Assembly (NCBI GenBank): GCA_021791495.1
Contig: JAJYWN010000064.1
Location: forward strand, 10,139 to 74,138
Direction of reading: 5' to 3'
Origin: Bacillota bacterium
GTDB lineage: Bacteria; Bacillota; Sulfobacillia; JAJYWN01
DNA length: 64,000 nt
The notes under the pieces are model-generated. The model had not been told where the DNA came from, did not search any database, and saw only the letters and a program-made list of their open reading frames with translations. Below are positions 3,502 to 14,914 of the stretch, piece by piece (the stretch's first letter is position 1; each line of letters begins with the position of its first letter). A program made the position numbers and the translations under genes.

Positions 3502-4008
3502 ATGGAGAAGGAGGTGGCGCGGCAGCCCCAACGGGCTGCCGCTTTTGTCATGCCTGAGAAGGAATCGAGAAAGAGGGTCGACCTGGTCCGCCTGAAGATG
3601 GTGCGGGAGTCGTCGACGCTCTACGAGCCGCGCCGGATCGAGTCGCCGAAGGCGGCGGCGGACCTCTTCCGCCAGTTCATCGGCGACGCCGACCGGGAGC
3701 AGATGATGGTCTGCTGCCTGGACGTCAGGAACCAACCGACGTGCCTACATGTGACCAGCATTGGCACGCTGGCCGCCGCTGCGGTCCACCCGCGCGAAGT
3801 ATTCAAGACAGCGGTCCTAGCCAACGCGGCCAGCATCATCGTCGGCCACAACCACCCCAGCGGGGACTGCGCCCCGAGCCGGGAGGACATCGAGGTGACC
3901 AGCCGGCTCCGTGAAGCCGGGCGTGTCCTCGGGATCGAGGTCTTGGATCACGTCATCGTCGGTGGAGCAGCGCACGTGAGCCTGCGCGAGCAGGGAATTG
4001 TGGCCTAG
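3502..4008 (+). CDS. RadC-like JAB/MPN domain protein (DUF2466 family; typical of mobile-element or anti-restriction regions)
   Basis: The C-terminal domain carries the conserved HNHPSG motif and the ED..TSRL pattern characteristic of RadC-like JAB proteins. Confidence 0.8.
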   Translation: MEKEVARQPQRAAAFVMPEKESRKRVDLVRLKMVRESSTLYEPRRIESPKAAADLFRQFIGDADREQMMVCCLDVRNQPTCLHVTSIGTLAAAAVHPREVFKTAVLANAASIIVGHNHPSGDCAPSREDIEVTSRLREAGRVLGIEVLDHVIVGGAAHVSLREQGIVA

Positions 4009-4689: not shown

Positions 4690-6140
4690 GGAACCCCAGA
4701 ATCGTCGAAACGCCGGGCCTCGCCAGCCGCCCGGCCCGGAAGACCCCCCAGGGCGTAGCTCGGGAGCCTGCTGCTCGCTTGCGAGCCCACTTGCGGCCCT
4801 GGACCGGCAGTGAAGCGTTTGGGCTCGCGCGTGCTTTCGGCCCGCCCTTGTGAGCCGTTCCCGTCCACTCGCCGCCGCCGGGCGCCCGGCCGGCTAGGCA
4901 TGCCAGAAACTCCGCCCTTCTTGTCGCACTCGCTCGCGAGTCGGCGCTTGTTCCCTACTTCACAAGGGCGGGTTTCAACAACTCCATGTGCGATATGGAA
5001 ACGCGACGGCTAGCCGGTGGGCGCAGAAGCGTCACCTTTCCGGTCTTGCCGCGCCTCGGGCCCCGAGCCCCCGTTGGACGCCGCTCCGGGGCCCCCGGCG
5101 ATCCCCGTCCGGATTTACGCCCCTTCCGGCTCGACCGGGGGTGCAGGCCGTCGGTGGCGGCTTGCCTGCCGGCCTGCCCGGCTATCGCCGCCGACGGGTG
5201 GTCCGCTGCCCGAGAAGCCGGAGGGCAGGCGGAGGGCCCCTGCGGCCGCGCGCCCCGGCAAGCCGTGGAGATCGACGCTCCGCGGCTCCCTGGTTGGCTA
5301 GGGCGTCGGCCAGTAACTTGGTAGGGAGTTTGGCCAAAGGCCGTCTCGGTCGTCCTGGGGCTGAACCCGTAATCGCCGCTCCCCGCCGGGCCATCCGGCC
5401 CGAGCGCCACCAGGGCGTCGCTCAAACGCCTGCCCCCGCTCGGGGGCCCGCCTTTCGGCCTTGGACCGATAGTTGCGCCCTTTGGGCTCGCGCCAGCTTG
5501 CGGGCGCTCGCGGGAGCCGTCTTTGCTTGATCGCCGCCGCGGGGCGTCCAGCCAGCCAGGCAAGCCAGGAACTCCGCCCTCCACCGTCACTCATGCTTGC
5601 AGGCCGACAATTCTTCCAGATTCCACGATGGCAGGAGCTAACAAATATATGTAGGGCATCAAAACGCGACAACTGCCCGACGGGCGCAGAAGCGCCGCCG
5701 TTGCGGTGTTGCCGCCCCTTCGAGCCTCGAGCACCCGTCCGACGCCGCTGCGGGGCCCTGGGCAATCACCGTCCGGATCTACGCCCCTTCCGGCTCGACC
5801 GGCAGGGCCGGCCGTCGATGGCGGCTTACCTCCGGGCCTGCCCGGTTACTGCCGCCGACCGGCGGTCCGCGGTGGGGGAGGCGGGAGAATGGGCGGAAGG
5901 CGCCCGCGCCCTCGCGCCCCGGCAAGCCGTGGAGATCGACGCTCTCACGGACCCATGCCAGGTCTGGGCGTGGCTTTGACACGGGGTAAGGGTTCCGCAG
6001 TTGCGGCCAGGCACAGAGCACTGGTCAGCCGACCTGCATGCCGTCCATTCCAGATGAGGATCACCCAACTCGCCGCCAGAAGCACCGAAAGCCATCGCAC
6101 CGCCCCAGTGCTCGTTGTTCAACCAGGAAACCCGAGGAGG
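4690..6140. repeat. tandem array of about 2.3 diverged ~664-bp repeat units (partial unit ~4690-4815, unit A ~4816-5479, unit B ~5480-6140)
   Basis: Direct sequence comparison gives a consistent 663-664 bp offset. TTTGGGCTCG is at 4818 and 5481, AAACGCGAC at 4999 and 5662, and GATCGACGCTC at 5270 and 5934. Identity is about 80-85% over ~300-bp cores. The region is GC-rich and every reading frame is Arg/Pro-rich. Confidence 0.8.
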
Positions 6141-6227: not shown

Positions 6228-6776
6228 GTGGATAAGAGACCGATCCCAAAGCCTGGCCCAAAGGGCCTCGCTGTTCCCATCGTGAGGCGAACCGTCAGCT
6301 ATCCGAAGGAGGACGCAACGGCGACAGCCGCACCCGACGCTTTCGGGCTAGCCGAGTTCGCCCAAGAGTGGCGCGAGACCGACGCTATGGCGGATTTCTC
6401 CCGAATTCCCAACGGCGTCTACGCCGTGGAGGTCAGGCGGGTGGGTCTCCGCCGCAAGGAGCCCGATGTCTACCTGGACTGGGTCCTGCAGGTCGTGGAA
6501 GGCGACCACGCCGGGAGGCAGGTTCGGAAGTCCCTGCCCTTCCGGTTGGGCAAGACCATCCGGTACCTCAAACACGACCTCTCGACGGTGGGGCTGGGCG
6601 ACGTCGAACTGCAAGAGCTGCCGCCTAGGCTGCAGGAAGCGCGCGGCCGGTTGGTCGAGGTCCGCGTGAGTGGCCAGGAAAACCTGCCGGACGTCTGGTT
6701 CGCCCGAGGGCTGTCGGAGGAAGCCGGGGACAACGGCCCTGTGGACGAAAGCCCTGATGATCGAGGGACCCTATGA
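6228..6776 (+). CDS. hypothetical protein, paralog family 1 of 2 (shares the DLS.VGLG.VELQ.LP motif with 8781..9224)
   Basis: GTG start with AGAGGAGG 8 nt upstream. Its stop overlaps the start of the next gene (ATGA). Confidence 0.55.
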   Translation: MDKRPIPKPGPKGLAVPIVRRTVSYPKEDATATAAPDAFGLAEFAQEWRETDAMADFSRIPNGVYAVEVRRVGLRRKEPDVYLDWVLQVVEGDHAGRQVRKSLPFRLGKTIRYLKHDLSTVGLGDVELQELPPRLQEARGRLVEVRVSGQENLPDVWFARGLSEEAGDNGPVDESPDDRGTL

Positions 6777-8332
6777 AGAAGTCGAGAGTCCAGACTGGCG
6801 GGGGGCCGGGGCGCCCCCCCGCCCCTCCACCCGGCGGTGCGCGTCCCACAATCGACACGGGGCACAGAAACCTGGCGGAGATGACGGCGGCGGCGTGGGA
6901 GGCCATGCGCCTGGCGAACGGGGACGAACCTAAGTACTTCGCCTCCGGCTCGCAGGTGGTCATGCTTGTTGACCGAGGCCAGCAGTTGCCGACGGTCTTG
7001 GCCCTGGATTTCTATTCCCTTCGCCGGGAACTCGCGACCTGTACCGACTGGATGCGCTTTGACGGGGACGGACACCCCTGGGACGAGTTTCCCGTCAAAG
7101 CCTGCGTCGAGACGATGTTGTCTTACCCCAATCCACCCCTCCCCGCACTCAACCGGGTGGTCGGAGTCCCGGTCCTGAGGCCGGACGGGACGCTACTAGA
7201 CCGCGCCGGGTACGATGCGGTTTCGGGGCTGTACCTCTACCCGACCTGCGACGTCGTTCTGCCAGACGGCCAACTGGGACCCGACGACATAGCCGCGGCG
7301 CTGGCCGTGATCGACGCCCTCCTGTGCGACTTCCCCTTCGTCGGGAGCGCGGACAGGGCGTTGGCGTTCGCGACCCTGCTGGAACCGTTCGTCCGGGAGA
7401 CGTTCGAGGGGCCAACGCCCCTCAGGTGCGTCGACGCGGTTTCCGGACAGGGAACCGGGAAGGACCTCTTGGCGACGACGCTAATGTACCCGTTCGCCGG
7501 CCGCGAGGAGTCGGCCCTGACCGAAGGGAGCACCGACGACGAGTGGCGGAAGAGGCTGACGGCGGCGTTGCTTCGGAAGCCCACCTTCATCTACATAAGC
7601 AACGTGCAGCGCACCCTGGACTCGGCGGCTCTGGCCGCCGCCCTGACGACCACCAACTGGGAGGACCGCATCCTGGGCCAGAGCCGGACCGTCGTCCTCC
7701 CGAACCGGAGCACTTGGATCGCGACTGGGAACGGAATCACCACTTCGCGGGAACTCCGTCGGAGGGTCCTCAAGATCGTCCTGGACGCGAGGCAGGAGTG
7801 CCCGTGGTTGCGCACGGGCTTCCGCCACAACCTGGTCGAGTGGCGCCAGGAGCACCGAGGCGAGATCGTCGGGGCAGCGCTGACCCTCGCCACCGCCTGG
7901 GTCCAGAGGGGGCGACCCCTGGGCACTGCGGTTCTCGGTTCCTACGAACGGTGGGCTGCGACCATGGGGGGAATCCTGGACGCCGCCGGCGTCCCAGGAT
8001 TCCTGGAGAACCTGGGGGGCGCCCAGGAGTCGTTCGATGAAGAGACCAGGCAGCTTCTGGATTTCCTCCGTGCCTGGTGGGCGACGTTCGGGAGCCGTGC
8101 CGTGACCGCCGGGGAACTCCGCACCGGCCTGTCCGAAGACGTGCTCCCGCTGGCCGTTTCCGACGGATTCTCCGGCGGCCAGACGATCCGCCTCGGGAAG
8201 CTGCTGGTGGGCCTAGTGGGGCGGCATCTTGGAGGCGTGCACGTCGCCTTGGCAACCCCGGACAGGTCCCGGAAACTCCAGCGTTACCGGCTGGAGACGG
8301 TGGAGACGCACCCACAGTTCCCGGAGGTGTAG
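6773..8332 (+). CDS. hypothetical 519-aa protein (mobile-element associated; degenerate P-loop-like GQGTGKD segment; possible replication/primase-helicase-like function)
   Basis: A long ORF translationally coupled to the upstream small protein. There is no confidently recognizable family. Confidence 0.5.
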   Translation: MKKSRVQTGGGPGRPPAPPPGGARPTIDTGHRNLAEMTAAAWEAMRLANGDEPKYFASGSQVVMLVDRGQQLPTVLALDFYSLRRELATCTDWMRFDGDGHPWDEFPVKACVETMLSYPNPPLPALNRVVGVPVLRPDGTLLDRAGYDAVSGLYLYPTCDVVLPDGQLGPDDIAAALAVIDALLCDFPFVGSADRALAFATLLEPFVRETFEGPTPLRCVDAVSGQGTGKDLLATTLMYPFAGREESALTEGSTDDEWRKRLTAALLRKPTFIYISNVQRTLDSAALAAALTTTNWEDRILGQSRTVVLPNRSTWIATGNGITTSRELRRRVLKIVLDARQECPWLRTGFRHNLVEWRQEHRGEIVGAALTLATAWVQRGRPLGTAVLGSYERWAATMGGILDAAGVPGFLENLGGAQESFDEETRQLLDFLRAWWATFGSRAVTAGELRTGLSEDVLPLAVSDGFSGGQTIRLGKLLVGLVGRHLGGVHVALATPDRSRKLQRYRLETVETHPQFPEV

Positions 8333-9224: not shown

Positions 9225-9580
9225 CGCAGCGCAGTACTCTGGCTCCCCGATCCGGCGGGAGGGGCCGCCCCTGACCCCTTCCCCGGCGTCGGTGTCACAC
9301 GCTGCCTATGCGCGCCCTAGTCGCCCCTACGCCCCCCGGGGAAGAGCCGGCGTTTCCGGATGGCAGCGGCATTTCCGGAAGCGATGGGTTAGCCGAGCTG
9401 GGGCGATAGAGGCGGGGGCATAGGGCGCGGAAACAGGACTGTTCGCTCCCCATGGGAGCTGTGGGATGCACCATCCCAGCTAACAACGCTACCGCCCTGA
9501 GAGTTGTCCTGAGTGTCCTACGAGACCAGCCTCCAACCGCTTCGTCAATCGACTGGGACAGATATCATTCCTGTGGAGGA

Positions 9581-9802
9581 ATGCAGATGCTGATCGAAGA
9601 CGCAACGACTTCAAACCTAGACCGCTCGGGAGCGGCCACGGAGATGCTCACCGTCGCCCAAGCCGCCCATTTCCTTCGCTTACATCCTGCCACGCTCTAC
9701 CGGCTCGTCAAGGAAGGGGCCCTGCCGTGCATCCGGCTCGGCAGGCTCATTAGGATTCCCATGTCGGCCATCCTTGGGTTGGTAAGGCCGTCTGCGATGT
9801 AA
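9581..9802 (+). CDS. xis: excisionase-family helix-turn-helix DNA-binding protein (Xis); the start may be at 9644
   Basis: LTVAQAAHFLRLHPATLYRLVKEGALPCIRLGRLIRIP matches the excisionase/MerR-like HTH family. It sits immediately upstream of the integrase. Confidence 0.65.
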   Translation: MQMLIEDATTSNLDRSGAATEMLTVAQAAHFLRLHPATLYRLVKEGALPCIRLGRLIRIPMSAILGLVRPSAM

Positions 9803-9905: not shown

Positions 9906-11120
9906 ATGTCGATCCGGAAGACCAAATATGGCACATACGAAACCAAGGTCTACCAGGGGGTGGACCCGGCCACCGGCAGAGAAGCCTACGCCTACCGGAC
10001 GTTTAAGACCAAGGCCGAAGCGAAGCGCTTCGAGGCCGATGCCAAACGCTCCGTTGAGGAGCAGGAGCACAGACCACCCACAGAACTGACCGTCGTCGAG
10101 TTCCTTCAGGAATGGCTGGAGAAGGACGTCAGGCCCAACCTCAAGCGCCGCACCGCCTTGCGCTACGAGCAGTTGATCCGTGTCCAGGTCGCGCCGGCCA
10201 TTGGGCGCGTCCCGCTTGCGAAGCTCTCGGCGCGCGACGTGGCCAGCTTCCTTGCGGGCCTGAAAGCGCAGGTTGCCGATCGGACCCGCCTGCACGCCTA
10301 CCGGGTCCTCCATCGGGCGCTGAACGTCGCCGTCCAGTGGGGCCTCGTTGGGAGGAACGCTTGCGACGGGGTGAAGGCTCCGAAGGCGGCTCAGCCGGTG
10401 CTCCACGTGCTAGAGGCATCCGAAGTCGAGGCCCTCCTGAGGACGGCCAAGAAGGAGAGGATCTACCCACTCGTCCTGACCGCAGTCATGACGGGAATGC
10501 GCGTTGGAGAACTGTGCGGGTTGCGGTGGCAGGACGTAGACTTGGAGGATCGCGTGGCCACCGTGGCACAGGCGCTTGACAAGCCGGGACTGCAGCCCCT
10601 GTTCACGACGCCGAAGAACAGAAAGACACGCAAGGTTCCCCTTGCCCCGGATCTCGCGGAGACGCTGCGCGCGTGGCGGGCGGGGCAGGCGAAGGAGAAG
10701 CTGTTCTTCGGCCAGGAGTATGTTAGCATGGGCCTAGTCTTCTGCCAGCCCGACGGGCGTCCCCTGAACCCTCAGAGCCTGACCAGGCATACCTGGAAGA
10801 GGATCAGTAGGGCTGCGGGATTGCCCAACGGCATCCGATTCCATGACCTCCGGCACACCTTCATCTCAAGGGCACTGCAGGCCGGGGCTAACCCCAGGGC
10901 AGTCGCCGAGATTGCCGGACACCATGACGCGTCGTTCACGCTGCGAGTGTACGCCGGCGTGACCCTGAACGACTCCAGGGAGGCGGTGGCACAGCTCCAG
11001 GACTACCTGGCATTCAAGGGAGGCGGCCTCGTCCCAGCCCTGGCACCGGCAGACCGGCCTTCGCCGTCGACGAGCTCAAGCCGAAGTCCTGGCCTCCGCC
11101 TTCGCGTGTCGAAGGCATAG
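9906..11120 (+). CDS. int: tyrosine-type site-specific recombinase / phage integrase
   Basis: It has an N-terminal SAM-like domain and the C-terminal catalytic signature (R..HDLRHTF..Y). The C-terminal low-complexity tail may be read-through. Confidence 0.85.
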   Translation: MSIRKTKYGTYETKVYQGVDPATGREAYAYRTFKTKAEAKRFEADAKRSVEEQEHRPPTELTVVEFLQEWLEKDVRPNLKRRTALRYEQLIRVQVAPAIGRVPLAKLSARDVASFLAGLKAQVADRTRLHAYRVLHRALNVAVQWGLVGRNACDGVKAPKAAQPVLHVLEASEVEALLRTAKKERIYPLVLTAVMTGMRVGELCGLRWQDVDLEDRVATVAQALDKPGLQPLFTTPKNRKTRKVPLAPDLAETLRAWRAGQAKEKLFFGQEYVSMGLVFCQPDGRPLNPQSLTRHTWKRISRAAGLPNGIRFHDLRHTFISRALQAGANPRAVAEIAGHHDASFTLRVYAGVTLNDSREAVAQLQDYLAFKGGGLVPALAPADRPSPSTSSSRSPGLRLRVSKA

Positions 11121-11220
11121 CACCAATAGGTGGTAAGCATGCAGCCAGAAGGCTCCAAGGAGGGCCAAGCCAAAGTTGCTGGTCGAGTTGCCGTTTCTGG
11201 CCAGCTTCCAAGTGACCAAC

Positions 11221-11258
11221 CGAAACCCTCCCTTTCACTACAGGGCGGGAGGGTTTCG
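11221..11258. other. perfect 12-bp inverted repeat (CGAAACCCTCCC / GGGAGGGTTTCG) with a 14-nt loop
   Basis: Seen directly, 100 bp downstream of the integrase stop. There is no U-tract after it. It could be a structural or recombination-related hairpin, or a factor-binding site. Confidence 0.5.
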
Positions 11259-11755
11259 CGTTGGCGCTATCCTGGGAAGGAATCGCCCCTACCTCTTGCC
11301 GAAGAAGCATCTGGCCCTCACGGTTTCGTCAAGGGAGTGGCAGTGTTGTTGTCTCCGCCGTTACTGCGGTTTCCTGCGGATTACCCGCCCGATTGCCCGA
11401 TTTCCGGGGCTCATCCCGTCACCTGGTCCGTATGGTACTTGGTGGATCAGTCGCCACCATCCGCCGATGACTTCAGGCCTTTGGCTGTAAAAGAGGGTCG
11501 AGCGAACTACGAGCGACGCAACAACCGACAGAAATGCATGGCCAGGGGCATATCTGTTTGGACGGACAGGTCGGCTGTCCTGGTTGCGCAGTCTCTAAAT
11601 CCGGGACTGGCGGGAAAGCTGCTTGCGCGTGGTACGATAAAGCCTACAGATGGCTGGGTGGCTCAAACGGGGGGAAATCCTGCCCACCACACGTGGTGGC
11701 CTTTTGAAGGAGTATCTCCGCATACGATTTTCCAGGTTGAGGGGAGGTGAGCGGA

Positions 11756-12946
11756 GTGGCCCACGAGATTGAATTGTTGACTCCTTTCGGGGTGCTGGGC
11801 ATAAGCGAAGTTTGGGTCGAGTTCAACGGGCCTCGGCTGTTCACCTGTGAGAACGCAGCCGGACATGCCTACATAGGGATGTGGGTCATGGAAGGCAAGG
11901 ACAGGGATGTTTATCTCTTTATGGCCGTCAGCCATGAACGTCTGGAAACTATACGCAGAGGCATGATGCCATTGTGTGTGGCTATCGTTTCTTCCGAATG
12001 CGGTATTGAAGAGGTCACCTTCTTCCCGGACGGTTCGGTAGCCAAATCCCGACACCTGGATGCGGAGCAGATCCCGAAAGAGTACCTCCCCTCAGAGGAT
12101 GCGGTAGTGACAATCTACGAGGATCAGGAACACCGAGAGCCCGAGATCACTTCGGTCACAATGGCTGTTCGAAGCCGGCGGGAGATCGTGGACGTGTGTG
12201 TTGATGGGGGAGCAGCTAGATTCCACGAATTGCAGACCAGGCGCCTAGGGACCCTCCTACTGAACACCCAAGATCTCTTGGATGACCTTGCCAACCCGGA
12301 ATCCGCCACCAGAGGAAGATTGCCCAAGGCGCTGATTGACGAGACGCAGTTCAATGCACTACCGGTAGCCGCAGGTTCTTTCCGAATACGTCTGGCGTCG
12401 GCCAATGCTTGTGACCTCTTCTTTGACACGGGAATGGCGACCAAAGCGGCAAGACAGATGGTCGACCTCATCCAGGCGTGTGCCAAGCCGGATAGCCTCG
12501 GGCCTGCTGCAGAAGGCATCGGCCCTCGCGCAGCAGGGAAGCTTCGTGACCTGTTGGGCGATCTGTCCGCTGATGGACTGAGCCTAACTGTGGACTGGGG
12601 ATCGCCTGCCGACCACAGGAACGTGGCACGGCTTTCCGGTAGGGAGGTTCACGAAGCTTTCACTGCCCTCACCCAGAAAGCCCTACCGGTCTCCTCCATC
12701 TTCACGGTCCATGGAAGGCTGACCGGTCTGGACACCGATAAGCGGTCCTTCAGGTTTCACGCTGACGACGGCAGTCTGTACACTGGATCATATACCGACA
12801 ATTGCGCGGAAGAAGTTCTTATGCGTCTGGCCAGGCAGGAAGGCGGGACGCCGTCGACCGCCACTATCGAGCAGATAGTCGTGGTTGTCCCGGCGACTGG
12901 GGAAACCAAGACAAGCAACATATTACGGACGTTGATCCCGGATTAG
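11756..12946 (+). CDS. hypothetical 397-aa protein (orphan cargo gene; the start may alternatively be GTG at 11747)
   Basis: A long ORF with GAGGGGAGG upstream. Its composition is of lower GC than the flanks. No recognizable domains. Confidence 0.55.
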   Translation: MAHEIELLTPFGVLGISEVWVEFNGPRLFTCENAAGHAYIGMWVMEGKDRDVYLFMAVSHERLETIRRGMMPLCVAIVSSECGIEEVTFFPDGSVAKSRHLDAEQIPKEYLPSEDAVVTIYEDQEHREPEITSVTMAVRSRREIVDVCVDGGAARFHELQTRRLGTLLLNTQDLLDDLANPESATRGRLPKALIDETQFNALPVAAGSFRIRLASANACDLFFDTGMATKAARQMVDLIQACAKPDSLGPAAEGIGPRAAGKLRDLLGDLSADGLSLTVDWGSPADHRNVARLSGREVHEAFTALTQKALPVSSIFTVHGRLTGLDTDKRSFRFHADDGSLYTGSYTDNCAEEVLMRLARQEGGTPSTATIEQIVVVVPATGETKTSNILRTLIPD

Positions 12947-13134
12947 GAGGTGGACGCAAGCCGACCCGGGCATTCTCCGACAGCCGAAACGCTTCCACGC
13001 GCTCCTTTCCACGATTGAGCTCCCTCTCCGGCCTCCGAGAGCTGCCTCCACTTGGTTCAATTTTGCGAGAGAAGCATCTCCGTGCCCGACGACAAACCGC
13101 AAACAGTAATGTCAAGATGACTGTCCCGCGGCAG

Positions 13135-13210
13135 AATCCGGGGTCGGCAAAAGACCGCCCCGGGGGCGGTACGCGCAAATCGTTGTCCGGTAATTGCGCC
13201 CGGGAGGACT
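13135..13210. repeat. att-like direct repeat copy: duplicate of the tRNA-Arg(CCU) 3' end plus its downstream hairpin region
   Basis: CAAATCGTTGT...TGCGCCCGGGAGGACT (13176-13210) matches 14821-14856. AATCCGGGG...hairpin (13135-13175) matches 14767-14820. Confidence 0.7.
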
Positions 13211-13729
13211 TTAGCCACCGCGCCGGTCTCTTGTCAGAATCGTGTCCACCAAATCTGCGTATTCCCGTGAGCCCTCCACGCGCGGGCCAGCATCGTGCTC
13301 GATAGCGTGCCGAGCTTTCTCCAGCGGAAGATCGGCCAGAGTACGGGCGATTGCCCAAACGCCTTGCTCCCGCTTCTGTGTTGGTAGATTCTTGACCCCC
13401 AGGGTTTCCGCAAATCGTCTTAGATCCTTGGCCTCCGGCAGCAATTCTCGAGACATCATCTGACTCAACACCTGGGATAAAAAAGCATACATCTGTGGGT
13501 TTTGTTCCCTCAACTCAGTCAGGAAAGCGGATCGTGTGCTTTTTGCCTTGCTTCCGGGGCGCAAGTCTCTACGGGCATTGAGCTTATCCAGAGATCGCAA
13601 AATCCTGCCGAGAGGTTCGGTCTCCGAGTCACCTTCCAGGATGCTGGTGACGTCAAGAATATCCCGTCTTGAGTACGTCTCCCCAATGATCAGCATTTCA
13701 AGAAGTAGCTTCTTGTTTGTTGTCATCAC
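13211..13729 (-). CDS. hypothetical protein, putative ParA partner (172 aa)
   Basis: It overlaps the parA stop by 4 nt (ATGA). Low-GC composition. Confidence 0.5.
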   Translation of the reverse strand: MMTTNKKLLLEMLIIGETYSRRDILDVTSILEGDSETEPLGRILRSLDKLNARRDLRPGSKAKSTRSAFLTELREQNPQMYAFLSQVLSQMMSRELLPEAKDLRRFAETLGVKNLPTQKREQGVWAIARTLADLPLEKARHAIEHDAGPRVEGSREYADLVDTILTRDRRGG

Positions 13730-14565
13730 AGGCCCACCTTCGCGGCGAACTCCTTTCCAAATGCTTCAAACTCATCTATCACGTTGCTTCTCGCATACTC
13801 CGTATGGAAGATTGCGGTCTTGTCTCTGGCCCCCCGTGGATATGATCGTGAATGGCGAACTTCGTTTACGAACACAGGCCAACCGTACTGTAGCGCTCGC
13901 TCCTTGACCTCAGCCCTAGCCTGGTTGTGTTCCGCGTATGAATAGGATGGGTCGGCGTCGTTGAAAACGATGCCGGCGATCTGTACTGTTGCTGTTCTGT
14001 GTGAGCGCCGGAAATCGTCCAGTGAACGGACTAGCAACGGCAAGCCTATGGCAGCTAGGAACTCCGGCTTTACGGGAATCAAGACACTGTCGCTAGCTAA
14101 ATAAGCTGCCACGGTTAACATCGATTCAGTCGGAGGGCAGTCCAGAAGAATCAGATCATATTTGTCACGAACATCAGCGAGGAAACCTGCCAACAGGTGT
14201 TCCTTGCTAGCCGGGTTCTTCAGCGTCCATGACAACTCCAGCAACGACGGGACCAAGTCAATAAGACTTCCATCGGTCCATCTCTTGACCCGCTTAATCA
14301 TGCTCTCAGGGGTGATCTCTTGCCTCGGTGCTATGGTTGGAGTGAACTGCTCGAAGATGTCAAATACTGTCGGTGCGTGTTGGTCCAGATGCTTTCGATA
14401 CTCTACAACACCCATTAAGTACTGACTTGCGTTGGCTTGGGGGTCCAAGTCGACAAGTAGTACTTTCTTGTTCCGTCTATACGCCACATACCAGGCCAGA
14501 TTGAACGCCAGCGTGGTCTTGCCCACGCCTCCTTTCATGTTGATAACAGCAACGGTGACGACCAT
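13726..14565 (-). CDS. parA: ParA/MinD-family partition ATPase
   Basis: Deviant Walker A motif MKGGVGKTT with LVDLDPQANAS. Confidence 0.85.
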   Translation of the reverse strand: MVVTVAVINMKGGVGKTTLAFNLAWYVAYRRNKKVLLVDLDPQANASQYLMGVVEYRKHLDQHAPTVFDIFEQFTPTIAPRQEITPESMIKRVKRWTDGSLIDLVPSLLELSWTLKNPASKEHLLAGFLADVRDKYDLILLDCPPTESMLTVAAYLASDSVLIPVKPEFLAAIGLPLLVRSLDDFRRSHRTATVQIAGIVFNDADPSYSYAEHNQARAEVKERALQYGWPVFVNEVRHSRSYPRGARDKTAIFHTEYARSNVIDEFEAFGKEFAAKVGL

Positions 14566-14766
14566 TTCAAGCTCCCCCTCTTTCCTTCGTTTGGTAAATG
14601 GGGTTCGCCGCCTGGTCGTTTGGTCCCTGTCCTATTACTCCTTCGTTTTGGCCGATCATTTGACCGTGACGTATAGGGAGGGCCACGCATGGTTCGATGA
14701 TTGGACACGGCATACGGACATGGGCGGCAAGGGCACTGCAGGTTCCAGTTTGGGCACGACTCTGCC

Positions 14767-14856
14767 TAATCCGGGGTAAAATCCGGGGTGGTCCGAAGAC
14801 CACCCCGGGGTTGGTCGGCACAAATCGTTGTGCCGCAATGTGCGCCCGGGAGGACT
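14767..14856. repeat. att-like direct repeat copy at the tRNA-Arg(CCU) 3' end, including a perfect terminator-like hairpin CCGGGGTGGTC-CGAA-GACCACCCCGG (14784-14809)
   Basis: See the matching copy at 13135-13210. Confidence 0.7.
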
Positions 14857-14914
14857 CGAACCACCGGCACGCGGTTTAGGAAACCGCTGCTCTATCCACC
14901 TGAGCTACGGGCGC
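14841..14914 (-). tRNA. tRNA-Arg (anticodon CCU)
   Basis: Manual cloverleaf: acceptor GCGCCCG, D-loop AGGTGGATAGAGC, anticodon loop TTCCTAA, T-arm GGTTCGAGTCC, discriminator A, and no encoded CCA. Confidence 0.85.

Follow-up and report, generated by a model that had tools for sequence, protein, structure and literature searches.

A candidate two-gene relative of the PD-T4-10 defence system beside the integrase of a putative tRNA-Arg-associated island

Results and Discussion

Two genes lie between an integrase and a tRNA-derived repeat

We analysed a 64,000-nucleotide stretch of DNA (the window) from a Bacillota bacterium of the lineage Sulfobacillia, JAJYWN01 (assembly GCA_021791495.1, contig JAJYWN010000064.1, positions 10,139 to 74,138), and compared its genes with the public annotation of an identical contig (GCA_027420595.1, DAIBIV010000026.1). 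Two genes, here called A and B, lie between a tyrosine integrase gene and a copy of a tRNA-Arg-derived repeat. On balance, we read positions 11343-12946 as a two-gene operon that is a distant relative of PD-T4-10, an anti-phage system of Escherichia coli, carried as cargo beside the integrase of a tRNA-Arg-associated island. An earlier reading made from the sequence alone (the sequence-only reading) had taken the end of a mobile element nearest its integrase to hold defence-type cargo, and that proposal is supported by matches of both proteins to PD-T4-10 components. The features of the locus are:

9906-11120, + strand: tyrosine integrase (Pfam Phage_integrase, E = 1e-32)
11221-11232 and 11247-11258, + strand: perfect 12-bp inverted repeat, CGAAACCCTCCC / GGGAGGGTTTCG, with a 14-nt loop
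11331-11337, + strand: Shine-Dalgarno-like AAGGGAG, read from the sequence, 5 nt ahead of GTG 11343 of gene A
11343-11750, + strand: gene A, ~135 amino acids (aa), with a GTG start at 11343 and a TGA stop at 11748-11750
11741-11749, + strand: Shine-Dalgarno-like GGGGAGGTG, within the last codons of A and 6 nt ahead of GTG 11756
11756-12946, + strand: gene B, 396 aa, with the GTG start at 11756 as in the public annotation and the stop at 12944-12946
13120-13222, no strand assigned: attachment-site (att) copy, a ~100-bp direct repeat 86% identical to 14765-14868 (3' end of tRNA-Arg(CCT) and the sequence downstream of it)
14840-14914, - strand: tRNA-Arg(CCT), whose 3' end is part of the repeat copy at 14765-14868

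The sequence-only reading correctly placed a plus-strand open reading frame (ORF) ending at 12946 between the integrase and the att copy at 13120-13222, which forms the right edge of the segment holding the integrase, A, and B, but it gave the product 397 aa instead of 396. An alternative in-frame start at GTG 11747 would extend B to 399 aa. Positions 11121-11755 had been described as a leader, but this stretch encodes gene A. The ORF that encompasses A runs from 11130 to 11750, with its C-terminal 120 residues matching the PADLOC model PD-T4-10_A, and the public record calls the gene from ATG 11139 as a 203-aa protein, which amounts to a 5' extension of ~68 codons. Alignment of the ORFs upstream of B homologues with the window places the start at about GTG 11343, with TTG 11346 and TTG 11349 as alternatives. 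The 5' extension has no homologues, includes the hairpin formed by the inverted repeat, and has a GC content at third codon positions (GC3) of 0.485 compared with 0.596 in the conserved part of A. Only 5 nt separate A from B, and the position of GGGGAGGTG inside the end of A, immediately ahead of the B start, suggests that the two genes are translationally coupled.

The GC content of the segment was said to be lower than that of its flanks, which holds on the left, with 57.3% for 11121-12946 compared with 64.7% for the integrase gene and ~65% on the host side, but fails on the right, where a ParA module at 13223-14764 has the lowest value in the area at 52.9%. GC3 is 0.60 in A and 0.64 in B, compared with 0.80 and 0.84 in the integrase gene and a primase-like gene further to the left. 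This contrast indicates that the A-B pair is cargo gained separately from the integration module, as judged from composition.

Gene B carries a DUF6575 domain and a predicted OB fold

The protein encoded by gene B had been considered an orphan with no recognisable domain. Neither description survives database searches: Pfam DUF6575 matches its N-terminal region with E = 4e-12 and 46.4 bits against a cutoff of 26.6, and an exhaustive profile search with B recovers 3,822 cluster representatives at E ≤ 1e-3, of which 741 reach E ≤ 1e-30, the top matches being mostly full-length at ~380 aa. Identity between the window protein and its relatives is low, at 17-31%, and a word search with it finds just 7 homologues. 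The structures of A and B were modelled with family alignments, with a predicted local distance difference test score (pLDDT) of about 90 for both, and the model of B has three parts:

11756-12070, + strand, residues 1-105: N-terminal domain (N-domain), DUF6575, a five-stranded beta meander with two helices and a hairpin
12152-12685, + strand, residues 133-310: middle alpha/beta domain, covered by the PDC-M63B hidden Markov models (HMMs)
12689-12946, + strand, residues 312-396 and stop codon: C-terminal oligonucleotide/oligosaccharide-binding (OB) fold, beta1-beta2-beta3-alpha-beta4-beta5

The PADLOC model PD-T4-10_B matches residues 21-122 of B with E = 6.4e-7 (HMM positions 24-124 of 353), and 57 of 123 B-family members match the same model. 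Characterised families give neither a structural nor a sequence match to the middle domain, in which GSF at 207-209 and W281 are invariant and Q172 and P284 nearly so. In the model of the C-terminal domain, five strands form a barrel and a helix separates strands 3 and 4, as is typical of an OB fold, and the conserved residues W332 and Y367 hint that this domain could bind single-stranded DNA or RNA. The few residues that are invariant or nearly invariant across the B family (D24, which is Asn in the window protein, Y39, Q172, G207-S208, W281, W332, and Y367) are mostly of non-catalytic types, which argues against B being an enzyme. A comparison with the PHROGs collection gave only one weak match, between the C-terminal region of B and phrog_6603 (unknown function; E = 0.007).

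A predicted ADP-ribosyltransferase-like fold in the family of gene A

A word-index protein search with the window A protein alone returned only the protein itself, and NCBIfam contains no match to either A or B. A profile built from ORFs harvested in the DNA upstream of B homologues recovers 1,144 proteins, typically 122-128 aa long and devoid of Pfam domains. The window protein matches PADLOC PD-T4-10_A over HMM positions 23-143 of 148, with E = 2.5e-5 for the long ORF and 6.3e-6 for the 135-aa form, and 110 of 111 A-family members match this model.

The predicted structure of A shows the split beta-sheet of an ADP-ribosyltransferase (ART)-like fold, a resemblance that is not reported in the literature that we searched. 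At the sequence level A matches no ART family in Pfam or the Protein Data Bank (PDB), and a sequence search of solved structures with the family profiles gave nothing for B and only chance-level matches for A. In the main clade of the A family, R32 in strand 1, S71 in strand 2, H115-H116 at the start of strand 5, E133, C18, and C65 are each at least 90% conserved. The window protein keeps Ser71 but has a tyrosine in place of R32, whereas the strand-1 arginine is present in all other members that we examined, including main-clade, plasmid, viral, and E. coli copies. Strand 5 of A starts with His-His and not with a glutamate. The catalytic and NAD-binding motif of ARTs, which consists of a strand-1 Arg or His, a strand-2 Ser or Tyr, and a strand-5 Glu, is therefore incomplete in window A. 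The strand-1 aromatic-Arg ... Pro-Pro pattern of the family is presumably comparable to the YRxDSRPP of cholera and pertussis toxins, a likeness that we take as a lead only.

The predicted fold raises the possibility, which we consider rather unlikely, that A is an active NAD+-using ART or NADase. In one variant A would switch the N-domain of B, in the manner of a type VII toxin-antitoxin (TA) system, and in another the roles would be reversed, with A as the effector, under the regulation of the N-domain protein or paired with it as an immunity factor. The fold itself and the strong conservation of the polar residues listed above speak for an enzyme, but enzymes of the R-S-E type require a strand-1 arginine, which the window protein does not have, its strand 5 begins with HH where a glutamate would be expected, and sequence comparison reveals no ART family. 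Since R32 is missing from window A, this copy may be non-enzymatic even if the family as a whole is enzymatic.

The same divergence could mean that the window pair is an inert remnant heading for loss. Of 72 positions with high conservation in the main clade, window A keeps just 35, and it lacks R32; the low identity of B to its relatives and its short list of word-search homologues fit such decay. We nevertheless regard this explanation as very unlikely, because neither ORF is disrupted and both have good ribosome-binding sites and the spacing of coupled genes, because both structural models are confident, and because plasmids and a defence island carry a clade that is likewise divergent (P0002, 30% identity).

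A and the N-domain of B form a constant core

From a scan of one genome per species we sampled 80 A loci, which span Dehalococcoidia, Acidobacteriota, Verrucomicrobiota, Spirochaetia, Latescibacterota, Binatia, Alphaproteobacteria, and Gammaproteobacteria. A protein matching the B profile follows A directly and on the same strand in 79 of the 80 loci, with the exception located at a contig end. Conversely, each word-search homologue of B for which DNA was available has an ORF of ~125 aa directly upstream, with a 4-bp ATGA overlap. The single-gene accessory function that had been envisaged for B thus gives way to an obligate gene pair, A with a DUF6575 partner.

What follows the N-domain varies. 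The window architecture of N-domain, middle domain, and OB fold occurs 53 times, the N-domain with the OB fold alone 10 times, the N-domain by itself 6 times, and fusions of the N-domain to other proteins 9 times; 3 further B sequences are partial. As judged from these architectures, the commonest environmental form of the A plus N-domain system carries the predicted OB-fold module. Among the fusions, one has DISARM DrmA behind the N-domain (E = 5e-276) and DrmB as the next gene, another has a DUF1156 adenine methylase resembling HmaB with an SNF2 helicase next to it, and two have an enolase-superfamily domain. In two Dehalococcoidia genomes (L083 and L086, both at 9977-10999), A and a short B consisting of N-domain and OB fold are fused into a single ORF of 340 aa, which provides Rosetta-stone evidence for a direct relationship between A and the N-domain. 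Sequence comparison therefore defines A and the N-domain of B as a constant core to which interchangeable C-terminal effector parts are attached, and the attachment of this core to DrmA and to a methylase elsewhere makes it look like a portable regulatory switch. These attachments are what would be expected if A were an enzyme acting as a switch, as are the pairs in which the partner of A is only an N-domain of ~130 aa, three of them on viral contigs.

Several loci have unusual arrangements. The DrmA and DUF1156 attachments were seen at L031 10324-15887, L045, L072, L013 10366-17235, and L027. Tandem A-B pairs occur in Dehalococcoidia, with three pairs in L055 9956-14873 and two in L034 8901-10812, and at L030 10321-13513 an insert of ~1.8 kb with a group II intron-type reverse transcriptase (YADD) splits B. 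Gene A is often left uncalled, for example at L001 595-1362, upstream of L004 3796, at L006 4038-4451, L007 202-615, and L092 4525-4977 (the Arthrobacter plasmid pA58H3). An uncalled or mis-started A leaves a gap of 400-640 bp upstream of a DUF6575 gene that can be mistaken for a leader.

These observations bear on the model of the sequence-only reading, in which one orphan accessory gene lies under a long, structured 5' leader with a hairpin. The hairpin is genuine: the inverted repeat at 11221-11258 is perfect and exactly where it had been placed, the window has no second one, and 100 shuffled sequences yielded no comparable structure. The extended fold is thermodynamically unusual as well, at -42.4 kcal/mol (z = -3.8). 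However, the supposed leader codes for a protein conserved among more than 1,100 relatives, a Pfam domain and thousands of homologues are known for B, and the hairpin sits upstream of gene A, not between a promoter and B, in the 222-nt spacer between integrase and A (101 nt past the integrase stop and 85 nt ahead of A). We find the leader model hardly tenable and count it as already refuted by the PADLOC matches, the A ORFs upstream of B homologues, the A profile family, and the co-occurrence of A and B. Nor does the hairpin appear to be part of the system as a conserved operator, a role that we considered but rejected, since at 79 related loci the strongest inverted repeats ahead of A do not exceed those of shuffled sequences. 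No Rfam family matches the hairpin, and a terminator scan makes no call there, the T-tract being absent. The shift in base composition coincides with its position. Most likely, the hairpin is a locus-specific terminator or insulator of the integrase transcription unit and lies outside the A-B module.

The window pair is a probable distant relative of PD-T4-10

PD-T4-10 was found in E. coli ECOR65 and consists of two overlapping ORFs (Vassallo et al, 2022; PMC9519451). The B protein is toxic and is neutralised by A, which could not be deleted; T4 protection is lost without B and works by abortive infection, and the system protects against T-even phages (PMC9519451). No function was predicted for either protein, and DUF6575 was among the domains newly tied to defence (PMC9519451). 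A 2024 survey likewise gives the PD-T4-10 genes as of unknown function, and the literature that we found on the system offers no mechanism. In PADLOC the system is represented by PDLC04023/PDLC04024. That B of E. coli is toxic on its own while A is not speaks against A as an active enzyme or as the effector of the pair.

We recovered the E. coli locus through the 48-nt A/B junction, rebuilt from published primers, and found it in 13 of 5,426 complete E. coli genomes. In strain 13C1079T (L096 7506-11026) it occupies a P2-like prophage hotspot between the replication endonuclease and portal genes, and a gene of the AIPR (abortive-infection-related) family follows directly. The organisation agrees with that of the window, in that a small A immediately precedes B on the same strand and the two genes abut or overlap. 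A is homologous in the two systems, as is the DUF6575 N-domain of B. Profile-profile alignment with hhalign relates the B family to E. coli B with a probability of 97% (E = 9e-11) over the N-domain only (E. coli residues 17-126), and aligns the A family colinearly with E. coli A over 114 columns (E = 3e-4), with the motifs CPP, aromatic-Arg, E-C, L-S, and His in common. The settings also correspond, the E. coli pair occupying a P2 prophage hotspot and the window pair the end of an island next to its integrase.

The two systems differ in several respects. B shows no relationship over its C-terminal two thirds, A has ~135 aa here compared with 171 aa in E. coli and lacks the strand-1 arginine, and a 5-nt gap between A and B takes the place of the 4-bp ATGA overlap in E. 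coli. Toxicity, neutralisation, and phage protection are known for the E. coli form only, and a function of the window pair would be assigned by analogy with it. We read the window pair as a variation on this known kind of system and not as a kind of its own.

The middle and OB module of B may have a counterpart in PDC-M63, a candidate two-gene system in PADLOC. Residues 122-393 of window B are colinear with the PDC-M63B HMMs, with weak matches to four models (E = 1.3e-3 to 1.5e-2), and 49 of 123 B-family members match PDC-M63B, with a best E-value of 9e-15. In contrast to window B, PDC-M63B has no DUF6575 N-domain and is paired with another partner, and window A matches no PDC-M63 model. With the N-domain of PD-T4-10B and a C-terminal module resembling PDC-M63B, window B looks like an evolutionary chimera.

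Comparison with other systems sets limits on classification. In the TA systems with an ART fold (DarTG, ParST, Xre-RES, and MbcTA), the ART protein is the toxin, whereas in PD-T4-10 the corresponding protein is the neutraliser; moreover, A shares no sequence similarity with them and the window copy lacks the key arginine. In type VII TA systems such as HepT-MntA, the toxin is modified by an enzymatic antitoxin. This offers a possible analogy, in which an antitoxin that has the fold of an enzyme would act on a dedicated toxin domain, and it serves as a lead and not as a classification. DISARM (DrmA/DrmB) and Hma-type helicase-methylase systems carry A and the DUF6575 N-domain in several genomes, but the window contains none of their enzymes, and the N-domain here is joined to the middle domain and OB fold. 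Finally, a classical type II TA system has a DNA-binding antitoxin and an operator, whereas A has no such domain and related loci have no conserved palindrome upstream of A.

Homologues recur in defence and mobile contexts

One check put forward in the sequence-only reading was whether homologues recur near integrases or in defence islands. Homologues lie apparently within type I restriction-modification (R-M) operons, with Gabija and DISARM, in the P2 prophage hotspot, and on plasmids. Elsewhere the pair neighbours genes for type I R-M subunits, GajA, DrmB, and SNF2 helicases. Among the 113 ORFs that immediately flank A-B at 59 loci (e.g. L048, L049, L059, L060, and L028), 6 encode the type I specificity subunit HsdS and 6 the restriction subunit HsdR. 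The order of ORFs at several loci suggests that the pair was inserted between hsdS and hsdR of a type I R-M operon.

Plasmid copies with A upstream of B were found in Oscillatoria, Arthrobacter, and Rhodococcus; on the Arthrobacter plasmid pA58H3, A lies inside a 640-bp stretch with no listed gene. Viral sequences contain few examples. In IMG/VR only 3 contigs carry A (L089 8001-8794, L091 1201-2005, and L090 2065-2879), in each case followed by a protein of ~130 aa that resembles the N-domain by eye, is below threshold in HMM searches, and has no effector domain. These viral or proviral pairs could be either a minimal system or a phage-borne counter-measure. A tblastn search of the phage GenBank collection with B gave no match.

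The plasmid homologues, together with the location of the window pair at an island end beside an integrase and an att copy, are also what would be expected of an addiction module, that is, a TA pair that mainly prevents loss of integrative islands and plasmids, and the lack of an anti-phage effect of PDC-M63AB points the same way. We consider it unlikely that this is the main role, since the 80 sampled loci are for the most part chromosomal, with several of them lying within R-M, DISARM, and Gabija sets and not by mobility genes, and since the one relative studied experimentally protects against T-even phages. Roles in addiction and in defence are not mutually exclusive.

A possible mechanism for the A-B pair

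Several observations weigh against reading the window pair as a PD-T4-10 relative. Outside the N-domain, hhalign gives a probability of 0.08% for the B family against residues 127-363 of E. coli B (237 residues), and with the C-terminal 270 residues of window B so unlike those of E. coli B, the toxicity of the latter is not simply transferable. The A family and E. coli A are modestly similar, the hhalign probability of 38% indicating a distant relationship. Window A itself has diverged at more than half of the 72 main-clade positions and carries R32Y. The candidate system PDC-M63AB, whose B protein resembles the C-terminal module, gave no defence against 10 phages in its native E. coli host. 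The immediate neighbours of homologues are mostly housekeeping genes, with about a quarter of defence type. A has no helix-turn-helix, ribbon-helix-helix, or AbrB DNA-binding domain in Pfam and NCBIfam scans or in the model, and A-B fusions exist. The last two points make A a poor fit to a labile, autoregulating type II antitoxin, and A-B fits better as a switch or sensor pair than as a classical type II TA system.

If the pair does act as a distant PD-T4-10, A would act on the DUF6575 N-domain, through tight binding or possibly covalent modification, and so hold B off. Co-occurrence and fusion show that A and the N-domain belong together, and the mode of their interaction is our proposal. Phage infection would then disturb the control of B by A, as may be supposed from the E. 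coli system. The freed C-terminal module would bind nucleic acid through its OB fold and might arrest the cell before the phage cycle ends.

A bolder version of this scheme, speculative and in our estimate improbable, combines it with the predicted fold: A would be a minimal ART-fold protein that reversibly modifies the N-domain, or senses an NAD+-dependent modification of it, and thereby gates whichever effector is fused to the N-domain. The gated effectors would then include the middle and OB module, the toxin domain of PD-T4-10B, the DISARM protein DrmA, and the DUF1156 methylase, and PD-T4-10 would become the founding member of a widespread regulatory module, with an enzymatic "antitoxin", of TA-like as well as DISARM- and Hma-type defences. 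For the validated PD-T4-10 system, the analysis offers three handles: a predicted ART-like fold for the "antitoxin", a core that consists of A and the ~105-aa N-domain, and an OB-fold module in the commonest form. The wider points, namely the ART-like fold, the portable core, and the frequently uncalled A, have a computational basis.

Surroundings of the operon

The genes to the left of A-B in the window include:

1155-2720, - strand: HsdM, type I R-M methylase (N6_Mtase, E = 4e-100; HsdM_N)
3502-4008, + strand: RadC-like JAB protein, left of the integrase module
6773-8332: primase-like gene
9452-9802: HTH_17 excisionase-like gene

From their gene content, the surroundings of the integrase, A, and B are a mosaic of mobile and defence genes. 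The putative island has an integrase and two att copies, at 13120-13222 and 14765-14868, both to the right of the integrase. A search of the window for a left-hand att site, which allowed up to 3 mismatches to the 16-nt core, found no third copy; the best short match, 10 nt at 3879 within the RadC gene, is at chance level.

The two att copies enclose a 1.65-kb segment (13120-14868) that contains only a ParA-like ATPase gene (13726-14565, - strand) and a 172-aa ORF (13211-13729, - strand). Both ends of this segment are imperfect tRNA-Arg repeats and no integrase is encoded within it; it may have arisen as a second insert that lacks an integrase or be what is left of a tandem island. A very GC-rich stretch (up to 74%) that precedes the primase-like gene contains a direct repeat, 4869-5280 and 5531-5944, whose copies are ~660 bp apart and share blocks of 225 nt and 50 nt that are 82-86% identical; the ORFs in this stretch are shadow-like.

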